DNA of 64,000 bases from Cyclobacteriaceae bacterium (GTDB taxonomy: Bacteria > Bacteroidota > Bacteroidia > Cytophagales > Cyclobacteriaceae). Both the position numbers and the translations under genes were made by a program. This document shows, piece by piece, positions 38,947-41,227 of the stretch; the stretch's first letter is position 1; the number at the start of each line of letters is the position of its first letter. Location of the stretch: the NCBI GenBank assembly GCA_016787645.1, contig JAEUUF010000020.1, forward strand, positions 138,062 through 202,061. The letters are read 5' to 3'. The notes below the pieces were generated by a model. The model made no database searches and was not told the origin of the DNA. It was given only the letters and a program-made list of their open reading frames with translations.

Positions 38947-40974
38947 CTAATTGATGACCTTCTCCTGGAAGTCTCCGCGGAGTGTACGATACCGCTTGCG
39001 GGCCTCCGCCGCATAAACGCTGCCGGGAAACTTGTCCAGAAAATCCCGGTATACTTCCATGGCTTTGTCCTTGTTGTGAAGGTCCTTTTCATAGATGTCG
39101 CCTTCGGTGAAGTAGGCATCATCAGCGAGGACATCCTGTCCGAATTCTTTTACGATTTTGTCAAGAAGATTCAATGCCAGGTTAAACTCACCGCGCTTGA
39201 TCCGTAGGTTCGCCTCTAGCCAGTACACATCATCTTGAATGCTATAAATGACTATGGATGGCTCCACCACCCAAACTGAATCCCTTGATTTTTTTGATTC
39301 GTCCTTTTCATTCGTCCACGCTTCAAGTTCTTTCAACTCTGCCGGTGTCATTTCGTTGCGGGGCTTTCGGGGCCAGAGGTTCTTTTGAAGCGCCTCCGTC
39401 TTGCTCATTCGAACGCGCTTTCCTGACTGGAATTGATGCAGCCGGTCAAGAGCCATATCCATTTTGTTTTGCACTAGCAGCAATTCTATTGAAGCATACT
39501 CCCTCAATGCAATCCCTGTCGTGTCGGCGGCCAGGTTCTCCTTTATGCGCATGCTGAGTTCCATCGCATCATTGGCGATTTCGCGGGTAGTCGCTTGTTT
39601 TAGGATATCCAGGTGTTCTTCGGCCAGGCGGAAATCTCCCTTGTAGTAGGAAAGTTTGGCGTTCCTGAGTTTTGCCTCGTAGCCTAACGGGGCGTCCCGC
39701 TGATTCTTTTCCACCTGGGAATACAGTAAGGTCGCTTCCCAGGGCTCTTCCTTCAGCAAGTAGATGTCACCCAACTCCAGTTTTGCTTTTGCTTTAAGGT
39801 AAGCCGGAACACGTACCTGGTTCGTCAGGGCAGTAAGTTTGGCAACCGCTGAATCCTTTTCATCGAGGTAATACGCATGAAGCAGTGCCTCATTCAAAGT
39901 GGCTTCATAACTGTTGCCGTTGTCGGGATACCGCGCGATGAAGGATTGATATTCGCGGGTAAGGTACCTGACTGAATCCGTGTTGACCGGGAATTTTCTC
40001 TTCACTTTCGCTTCGCGGGCACGGATCAGGCCAAGGCGTGCAGGTAAATAGCTGTCCGTGTTTGCATATTCCTTGATCACATAAGAATACGCACGATCCG
40101 CATTTTCATAGTCTTTATTGTTCAGGGCGATCTGTGCAATCTCAAGGGTCTTTGGACTATCCTTCTTGAATCGCTTGTCGAATGCCCTCGCCTGCAGGTA
40201 AGCTCCGTAGAAATTCTTCTGCTGCAGATTTACCCAAACGAGCAAGTCCGCATACACCTCTGAATCCGGGTACTTTTGAACTTTGTCATAAAGCATTCGC
40301 TCGAGGCTTTCGAGTTCATCCGGTTTATTCAAAAAGAGTTGAAGCAGGTTCTTGACGTAATTCAGGTTAGCAGGTGATTGCGTGATGTAGTTAAGATACT
40401 CTTCCACCATCTCGTCCCTTTTGCCTTGCTGCCGGTAGAGGTTCGCCATTTCAAGTGTGAATGCACCGGGATTGCCCATTGCCTTGCGCAGCTCCTGGAG
40501 TGTGTACACCGCATACTCCGGGAGATTCTGCGAGGCCAGGTAATCTGCAATTGATTTTGTCCGATAAACGTCGGGCAGCGTATTCTTCACCAATGACTTG
40601 AAGTATTTGTCCGCGCGTGCCAGGTCGCCACTTCTCAGGTACACCAAGCCAAGATCCACACGATAGGATGTTCGGTCTTCTACTTTGCGAATGACCCGTT
40701 CAACATAATCTTCCGCCTCCTTGTACTTTCCCAAGTCAAGCAGCAAGTTGAAGTAATTGGCATGAATGACAGGAACATTTTCAGGTGATTTGCTCAACAC
40801 CTGGTACATCGCGAGCGCCTTTTCTTTTTCGCCCTTAAGTAAATACTCGTTCGCAATCCGAATGTCCTGCTCCTGGCCGAACGCCGACGTCAAAGACATT
40901 ACCCACACCAGACAGGATAATAGTATTGTATTATGTCTTATATAAGAGTAATAATAATCGTAATGGCTGTGCAT
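38947..40974 (-). CDS. Exported tetratricopeptide repeat protein
   Basis: Multiple TPR-like helix pairs; signal peptide ending AFG-Q. Start uncertain because the first 19 or so codons overlap the origin unwinding element. Confidence 0.85.
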   Translation of the reverse strand: MHSHYDYYYSYIRHNTILLSCLVWVMSLTSAFGQEQDIRIANEYLLKGEKEKALAMYQVLSKSPENVPVIHANYFNLLLDLGKYKEAEDYVERVIRKVEDRTSYRVDLGLVYLRSGDLARADKYFKSLVKNTLPDVYRTKSIADYLASQNLPEYAVYTLQELRKAMGNPGAFTLEMANLYRQQGKRDEMVEEYLNYITQSPANLNYVKNLLQLFLNKPDELESLERMLYDKVQKYPDSEVYADLLVWVNLQQKNFYGAYLQARAFDKRFKKDSPKTLEIAQIALNNKDYENADRAYSYVIKEYANTDSYLPARLGLIRAREAKVKRKFPVNTDSVRYLTREYQSFIARYPDNGNSYEATLNEALLHAYYLDEKDSAVAKLTALTNQVRVPAYLKAKAKLELGDIYLLKEEPWEATLLYSQVEKNQRDAPLGYEAKLRNAKLSYYKGDFRLAEEHLDILKQATTREIANDAMELSMRIKENLAADTTGIALREYASIELLLVQNKMDMALDRLHQFQSGKRVRMSKTEALQKNLWPRKPRNEMTPAELKELEAWTNEKDESKKSRDSVWVVEPSIVIYSIQDDVYWLEANLRIKRGEFNLALNLLDKIVKEFGQDVLADDAYFTEGDIYEKDLHNKDKAMEVYRDFLDKFPGSVYAAEARKRYRTLRGDFQEKVIN

Positions 40975-41227
40975 TTGTGGATAAGCGAGTCAAGATAAGA
41001 ATTGTCTAAACCTTGTGGGGTTCTTGTTTATAAGATTGGTCCGATTTGAGTCGCAAAATGGGGATGTGACGGGTATTCCACATAACGCCCTGGTGTGAAT
41101 GGCAACGTATACACAGTGTGGTGGTTGTTAGATCCTTGGGGTATAATGTGTGTAACCAGCGGGATTCATAAGTAAGTTGACCGGAATCAGCCTTAAGTGG
41201 AGGAAAGGTCGAGTTATCCACAAGTTA
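40916..41227. other. oriC: Probable chromosomal replication origin (oriC)
   Basis: Perfect DnaA boxes at 40976-40984 (TGTGGATAA) and 41214-41222 (TTATCCACA). One-mismatch boxes vs TTWTNCACA at 41025-41033, 41074-41082, 41107-41115 and 41147-41155. Tandem box + GCC + TAA trio repeats + AT-rich tract at 40916-40984. mnmG and two parS sites nearby. Confidence 0.85.

Follow-up and report, generated by a model that had tools for sequence, protein, structure and literature searches.

Can a bacterial chromosome unwind its origin of replication inside a translated gene? The question is raised by a 64,000-nucleotide stretch (hereafter the window) of contig JAEUUF010000020.1 (C26; positions 138,062 to 202,061), which belongs to an uncultured, Ohtaekwangia-like Cyclobacteriaceae bacterium (Cytophagales) known from a metagenome-assembled genome (MAG) of 4.0 Mb in 28 contigs (GCA_016787645.1; G000). 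On the minus strand of the window, from 40984 to 40916, two tandem DnaA boxes are followed by a short spacer, a run of trinucleotides and an AT-rich tract, and these elements run across the start of a gene for a tetratricopeptide repeat (TPR) protein. Our reading, to which we assign a probability of roughly 60%, is that the chromosomal origin (oriC) lies here and that a variant module, similar to the basal unwinding system (BUS) of Bacillus subtilis, doubles as the coding sequence of the TPR signal peptide. As parts of this reading we infer DnaA binding, strand engagement, the site of unwinding and translation from the ATG in the second box. A chromosomal origin whose unwinding module doubles as coding sequence would be unusual.

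The chromosomal oriC most probably consists of the intergenic gap at 40975-41227 (253 bp) and the adjoining ~75 nt at the 5' end of the TPR gene. Among the eleven contigs longer than 60 kb, only C26 has an internal V-shaped minimum of cumulative GC skew, the others being monotonic. The trough, shallow and with two lobes, extends over 175-190 kb of the contig (window ~37-52 kb) and reaches its lowest value in the 5-kb bin at 185-190 kb; the DnaA-box cluster, at 179.0-179.3 kb, is inside it. The genome holds 32 perfect TTATCCACA boxes, and the only two that lie less than 600 bp apart are those at 40976-40984 (minus strand) and 41214-41222 (plus strand). When one mismatch is allowed, this locus is the best DnaA-box cluster of the genome, and when two are allowed it contains 7 boxes in 325 bp, against 0.93 expected. 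Between 41222 and 56297, a stretch that includes the gaps at 45618-45984 and 49849-50703 in the skew trough, no box with at most one mismatch was found.

The neighbourhood is also that of an origin. The classic origin neighbour mnmG (gidA; 43740-45617, minus strand; PF01134, E = 3.8e-165) lies 2.8 kb from the box cluster, and a parS-like site with one mismatch, TGTTTCACGTGGAACA (45617-45632, plus strand), lies 4.6 kb from oriC. It is one of two sites in the whole genome with at most two mismatches, the other being TGTTTCACCTGAAACA, at 61623-61638 of the window. A weaker third copy, TGTTCCACGTGGAACT, was seen at 45655 and, with the copy at 45617, sits at the start of mnmG. The dnaA gene is on a different contig from the origin.

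Sequencing depth was taken as the k-mer depth of long Logan contigs from three wastewater runs of one study, X4, X5 and X6, for which values are given in this order. Depth was 84-87.6, 91.4-92.6 and 54.5-56.8 in the window and 89.3, 92.6 and 53.2 at the origin-ward end of contig C22, whose far end had 83.7, 86 and 48.9. It went from 78.4, 81.5 and 46.8 at the near end of contig C25 to 65.3, 69-78 and 39.4 at its far end, and from 76.4, 80.7 and 46.7 to 71.5, 75 and 40.5 between the near and far ends of contig C15. At the level of contigs, in seven places and with a resolution of a few hundred kb, depth is maximal at the window and at the origin-ward end of C22; on the same coarse sampling it declines along C15, C22 and C25 in the direction predicted by the skew, with a maximum-to-minimum ratio of 1.3-1.4.

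The TPR gene is kept beside oriC across the order. Upstream of its ortholog, genome G030 has 12 boxes with at most one mismatch, 8 of them perfect, within 240 bp, and boxes at this place in genomes of other families number 9 (G029), 11 (G035) and 6 (G033). Judged by its boxes, this upstream region reads as an unmistakable oriC in the other families.

To describe the module we compared the orthologous regions of 21 congeners and of 80 named loci, the latter from uncultured MAGs assigned to Cyclobacteriaceae, Cytophagales or 'Ohtaekwangia' and from the cultured Chryseotalea sanaruensis Ys. Distinct relatives were counted as 69 sequences for the conservation of boxes, spacer and repeats and as 71 for the analysis of reading frames and indels. 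In G000 itself, contigs of independent metagenome runs span the module stretch with 0 differences. Box 1 (40976-40984, minus strand) is a perfect DnaA box, TTATCCACA, which is also the consensus in the relatives. It is directly followed by AATGCACA (40975-40968, minus strand), inside which lies the TPR start ATG (40974-40972). Read as the 9-mer AAATGCACA (40968-40976, minus strand), box 2 has three mismatches and one A in common with box 1, and its register is 8 nt, the same as that of B. subtilis box 7. In the relatives its consensus is (A)AAT[G/C]CACA, the ACA core being invariant (69/69). A 4-nt spacer, GCCA (40964-40967, minus strand), variable in sequence and G/C-rich among the relatives, leads to seven trinucleotides, TTA CGA TTA TTA TTA CTC TTA (40943-40963, minus strand). 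Their bottom strand reads 3'-AAT GCT AAT AAT AAT GAG AAT-5', with A or C as the central base in 7/7 units, and they are translated as Y5-Y11 of HYDYYYSY. After the repeat units the minus strand continues with TATAAGACATAATACAATAC.

The AT-rich tract (40914-40958, 82% AT), presumed to be the DNA unwinding element (DUE), lies entirely within the TPR open reading frame (ORF). No other 45-mer of the window is as AT-rich, and genome-wide it belongs to the top 6e-5. By nearest-neighbour free energy it is the least stable duplex of 40700-41400, with the least stable 30-mer at 40929, and the intergenic part of oriC is without any other unstable tract. Of the four tandem-box sites in the genome, only this one is followed by AT-rich DNA (82% vs 38-44%).

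In B. subtilis the module reads 5'-TTATCCACA AATCCACA GGCC CTA CTA TTA CTT CTA CTA TTTTTTATA (PMC8287927 supplement, table and oligonucleotides). The arrangement of tandem boxes, 4-nt spacer, 3-nt repeat and AT tract found here matches this BUS in register, as had been proposed in a first-pass annotation of the window. That annotation had described the boxes, the spacer, the plus-strand GAG TAA TAA TAA TCG TAA (40946-40963), an ATA at 40941 and the next ATG at 40899, all correctly to the base; the B. subtilis sequence that it gave was right overall and lacked one C of the sequence in the supplement. Its view of the locus as a replication origin is borne out by the skew trough, the best box cluster and the box clusters of sister families. 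A BUS has been defined as a box with at most two mismatches by the repeats, an optional second tandem box with at most four, a spacer from the better box to the first trinucleotide (DnaA-trio) of at most 16 bp, with a mode of 12-13, a run of three or more trinucleotides whose central base on the bound strand is adenine, (.A.){3,}, and an AT-rich tract past them that melts easily (PMC8287927). In G000, mismatches number 0 in box 1 and 3 in box 2, five consecutive units have the central adenine (AAT AAT AAT GAG AAT), or seven if a central C is counted, and an easily melted tract of 82% AT lies past the trios. In B. subtilis the amino group of the central adenine contacts Asn187 of DnaA, C being tolerated and G and T being poor (PMC10721633); the DnaA of G000 keeps the FTN motif, with the equivalent of Asn187, and has Leu for I190.

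Where, then, does the TPR gene begin? The gene (38947-40974, minus strand, 675 aa) has an ORF that is open only five codons upstream of the ATG at 40974. A cleavable Sec-type signal peptide, MHSHYDYYYSYIRHNTILLSCLVWVMSLTSAFG↓QEQ (40876-40974, minus strand; the arrow marks cleavage), is predicted by inspection, with R13, the hydrophobic stretch ILLSCLVWVMSL and the junction A-F-G↓Q; its n-region, which is unusually long (16 aa), consists of trio and AT-tract DNA. The N-terminus has a long n-region, rich in Tyr, Asn, His and Asp and followed by K/R, a hydrophobic core and a conserved A-x-G/A↓Q(D/E) junction. Since the n-region precedes this junction, the overlapped segment would be absent from the mature TPR protein. 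A lipoprotein reading (LLS↓C21) was rejected by inspection, the hydrophobic stretch before C21 being too short and the conserved site being the A↓Q junction. Between the AT tract and the hydrophobic core, almost all relatives have a near-invariant AATAC(N)ATAC motif (codons N-T-I/V-L; 40921-40932, minus strand). An NCBIfam search with the TPR and Ig-like proteins gave weak sub-threshold matches only, and a scan for sigma-70 promoters and terminators, with a consensus that is not that of Bacteroidota, gave nothing useful.

Over the 13 codons of the AT tract (mean 82.5% AT), the 71 relatives have 0 in-frame stops, against 148 and 89 in the other two frames of the same tract and a mean of 91 (minimum 60) in shuffles. 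Box 1 is separated from a conserved motif of the mature protein by 121, 124, 127, 130, 133 or 136 nt in 67 loci; in the other 4 the distance is 125, 128 or 134 nt. On this comparison of lengths, all indels since the clade ancestor are multiples of three. An in-frame ATG occurs at three positions. In ~49 loci, G000 among them, it falls within box 2 at +10; ~20 loci, among them C. sanaruensis, have it at +16, as CACATGR on the box 2 edge; and in ~6 loci it falls at +23, within units 1-2 and in another frame. For many species, no possible start other than the box ATG precedes the hydrophobic core. In C. sanaruensis Ys (L101, 1425-1560), TTATCCACA-AAAACACA-TGAC has the ATG at the box edge, followed by CTA TTA TAA TTA, and the run after the units is 100% AT and translated as MTYYNYIYIYIIKIIRKYTLCV... 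These alignments strongly favour the box 2 ATG as the start of the TPR gene, and the double use of the origin module as coding sequence appears to be common to about 70 related species.

The AT content of the 5' end of the TPR gene is 80%, compared with 48.8 ± 7.7% for 2720 long ORFs, among which it ranks first (4 standard deviations above the mean); such AT richness is therefore not general to gene starts. The outgroups for this comparison (Sporocytophaga, G029, L110 and L111) all have the tandem boxes, a G-rich spacer and the AT tract, and their ORF opens only at +44 to +113, with an ATG at +58 to +125. In these sister families the module is in non-coding DNA, 60-100 nt upstream of the TPR gene. 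This non-overlap is taken as ancestral, and the start codon would therefore have moved into the origin in the present clade.

The next question is whether the repeat units are held at the DNA or at the codon level. In the 69 relatives the five trinucleotides after the spacer follow the top-strand pattern Y-N-A: position 1 is a pyrimidine in 93-100%, and position 3 is A in 99, 93, 81, 91 and 51% (units 1 to 5 in order). The presumed DnaA-bound strand reads 3'-R-N-T-5', of which positions 1 and 3 fit the DnaA-trio, 3'-(G/A)AT-5'. The main reading frame takes the repeat units as NAY codons (Tyr, Asn, Asp and His), with the first codon base free and the second and third held. This is the opposite of ordinary protein-level conservation, and Tyr (TAY) makes a perfect canonical trio. 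In the species with the ATG at +23, the same pattern falls in another frame and gives A-Y-N codons (Ile, Met and Thr). Wherever the ATG lies (+10, +16 or +23), the units keep their Y-N-A phase relative to the boxes, which speaks for a constraint at the DNA level. Of the outgroups with non-coding units, L110 has a clean TAA TAA CAA TAA CTA array and others have partial ones.

Several observations weigh against the proposed double use of the module, and three other explanations draw on them. With regard to the origin itself, depth resolves its position only to within a few hundred kb, the GC skew of G003 (400 kb) and G030 (340 kb), taken around their TPR ortholog, is too weak and noisy to place an origin, and the origin of G000 is poor in consensus boxes relative to the outgroups. 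The boxes could belong to a DnaA-regulated promoter or titration site before the TPR gene, with the true oriC elsewhere, for example in an assembly gap. This would agree with the small number of boxes in G000 (two perfect, a few weak), with dnaA on another contig and with an assembly in 28 contigs; we nevertheless give it the slightest chance of the three, given the sole internal skew minimum of this contig around the region, the nearby parS and mnmG, the depth gradients that point to this region, the 6-13 perfect boxes at orthologous loci of the outgroups and a genome without any other box cluster. With regard to the start codon, seven relatives (L038, L093, L040, L042, L043, L047 and L049; about positions 1440-1520 of each) have ATC for ATG in box 2, which is there AATCCACA or ATTCAACA and B. 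subtilis-like, and have no in-frame ATG down to the mature protein. In these relatives the Tyr-rich frame remains open and the candidate starts are the ATC or an upstream GTG, TTG or ATG; an upstream start would put the boxes into coding sequence too. As evidence of a transcription start, RNA runs were also sought, for the window and for C. sanaruensis, and none were found; runs X14, X15 and X23 gave only 2-5x fragments. The seven relatives would be accommodated if the module were non-coding and TPR translation began at the ATA (40941), a start that the first-pass annotation had offered as an alternative, or at another downstream codon, so that there was no real overlap; MRHNTILLSCLVWVMSLTSAFG would then make a tidy signal peptide. 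Such a start is very improbable, because the ATA codon is not conserved, the upstream frame is open in all 71 relatives, without in-frame stops across the AT tract (vs ~90-150 in the other frames), indels from the boxes onward come only in multiples of three, and the box ATG is often the only start before the hydrophobic core. The comparative data thus discard the ATA and strongly favour the other option of that annotation, namely a module that overlaps the real TPR start and doubles as coding sequence.

The remaining points concern the repeat units. Their central base is variable among the relatives (top-strand T 28-74%, G 0-23% and A 12-62%, by unit), the adenine of the canonical trio is kept at this position only by G000 and the relatives nearest to it, and at least three consecutive canonical units in phase are found in 31/69 relatives (45%). 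From box 1 to the first unit (3'-AAT-5') there are 12 nt, as in B. subtilis, but the second unit is 3'-GCT-5', and the A-only run of at least three starts at 18 nt, vs the limit of 16 nt. Furthermore, NAY codons are never stops, and in the frame +1 species hydrophobic residues result from a T at the second codon position; taken frame by frame, coding may for these reasons add to the pattern at positions 1 and 3. It could be, then, that oriC and DnaA-bound tandem boxes are here, but that the 3-nt periodicity and AT richness are those of an odd N-terminal coding extension, with Tyr/Asn codons and an mRNA left unstructured for Shine-Dalgarno-less initiation, unwinding taking place elsewhere or free of trios. 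Bacteroidota favour A/U-rich initiation regions, which counts for such an extension, as do the variable central base, the 45% of relatives that pass (.A.){3,} and the automatic avoidance of stops by NAY codons. We consider it unlikely all the same, because the Y-N-A phase is locked to the boxes with three ATG positions in two frames, in the outgroups this AT tract is found outside coding sequence, none of the other 2720 ORFs compared has so AT-rich a 5' end, the intergenic part is free of further unstable tracts, and the spacer length and box register equal those of the B. subtilis BUS. As to whether conservation acts on nucleotides or amino acids, the check suggested by the first-pass annotation gave a divided answer: the Y-N-A pattern is kept in phase with the boxes over three ATG positions and two frames, while the trio-defining central base is kept only in G000 and its nearest relatives. 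Because the central adenine has this narrow conservation, we regard the module as BUS-like and of a variant type.

For an oriC whose module doubles as signal-peptide coding sequence, we propose a working scheme by analogy with B. subtilis. DnaA-ATP on tandem boxes 1 and 2 (40984-40968) would nucleate an oligomer, which would extend onto the window plus strand, the template of the TPR gene, and engage 3'-AAT GCT AAT AAT AAT GAG AAT-5' (40963-40943); this engagement would open the adjoining tract of 82% AT. The same DNA would be translated from the ATG of box 2, with the repeats supplying Tyr, Asp and Ser codons and the AT tract encoding the remainder of the n-region. A signal-peptide segment can carry such DNA-level constraints, even strong ones, because it is removed by cleavage and is tolerant of sequence. 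Going further, one may speculate, with considerable doubt, that the clade uses a deviant trio (bottom strand 3'-R-N-T-5', with the central base free) that co-evolved with the overlapping frame, the array and the DUE serving as start codon and n-region of a secreted protein, and that DnaA on boxes 1 and 2 would couple TPR expression to the initiation cycle.

Origin unwinding modules are usually treated, and sought, as intergenic, and here the module would be inside an ORF across a family-level clade. Because of this position, an origin finder that halts at the edge of a gene would cut the module short. The clade also offers a natural experiment on the positions of the trio, in which positions 1 and 3 are held and the supposedly essential central adenine drifts, while DnaA keeps Asn187. 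The cultured type strain of C. sanaruensis, which has the same architecture, would be a ready experimental model.

Further box-like motifs accompany the module. Beyond the AT tract, in the h-region of the signal peptide, the box scan gave a reversed DnaA-box-like motif with one mismatch, TTACCCACA (40899-40907, plus strand). A reversed box with at most two mismatches occurs in the corresponding part of the ORF in 47/71 relatives, compared with 10% of shuffles, mostly at +73 to +81 among the cases printed. Box-like motifs thus stand on both sides of the presumed DUE, and amino-acid constraint may also explain the reversed one. On the intergenic side, four degenerate boxes with two mismatches each lie within 41025-41155: TTACACACA (41147-41155, minus strand), GTATACACA (41107-41115, plus strand), TATTCCACA (41074-41082, plus strand) and TTATAAACA (41025-41033, minus strand); the congener alignment has box-like blocks at similar places. 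The perfect TTATCCACA box at the far edge of oriC (41214-41222, plus strand) is oriented away from the BUS and begins 5 nt past the stop of the upstream Big_5/DUF2141 gene, and most congeners have a TGTGGATAA-like box there. A second BUS at this far box was considered and rejected, as no tandem box, repeat or AT tract follows it.

Two observations on the metagenomes were made in passing. At L152 (G000:C25:430001-450000, ~13700-20000), contigs of the wastewater runs X4-X7 depart from the MAG sequence at ~13.7 kb, with 107 differences in about 1 kb, and then stop, which looks like a strain-variable region or an assembly join. Inside mnmG, a stretch of ~35 nt (44503-44537 of the window) interrupts the Logan contigs in each of the four runs and is represented there by very short and mostly deeper contigs; this is probably a conserved mnmG segment common to other community members.

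Known systems from the same order offer one comparison. BUS predictions (box, spacer and trios) for Cytophagales, such as Marivirga tractuosa and Cytophaga hutchinsonii, have low scores and other sequences, in a table that carries no gene context (Pelliciari et al. 2021); among the entries of it that we examined, none has the TTATCCACA-AATGCACA form seen here. From C. hutchinsonii, a functional oriC has been cloned on plasmids (Xu et al. 2012, cited in PMC4009838). Our literature search found no chromosomal origin described with a trio array and DUE inside a translated ORF.

The E. coli oriC (gidA/mnmG-oriC-mioC) resembles the present locus in being unlinked to dnaA, in lying beside mnmG, in having its DUE at one edge by a DnaA box and in neighbouring transcription that is directed towards the origin. 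It differs in that its DUE, made of 13-mers, is intergenic, that it has no tandem-box and trio array of this form, and that it has many more defined boxes, as well as IHF and Fis sites. For an origin inside an ORF, phage lambda ori in gene O is what we take to be the closest precedent. In lambda and other lambdoid origins, as here, initiator repeats and an AT-rich unwinding tract lie within a translated segment that tolerates constraint; lambda differs in being a phage origin, in having O-protein iterons rather than DnaA boxes and trios, and in that the host ORF is that of the initiator itself.

The BUS of B. subtilis oriC (incC DnaA-boxes 6/7; Richardson 2016/2019, Pelliciari 2021/2023) remains the main point of comparison. 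Its elements lie upstream of dnaN, whereas here the start codon falls in box 2, the units and the AT tract are read as coding sequence, the origin is unlinked to dnaA or dnaN, and the clade as a whole does not conserve the central adenine. The two have in common the 8-nt box register, the 4-nt G/C-rich spacer, the phase and strand of the units and the AT tract, along with a bottom-strand purine at position 1 and a bottom-strand T at position 3 of the units, and a DnaA with the equivalent of Asn187.

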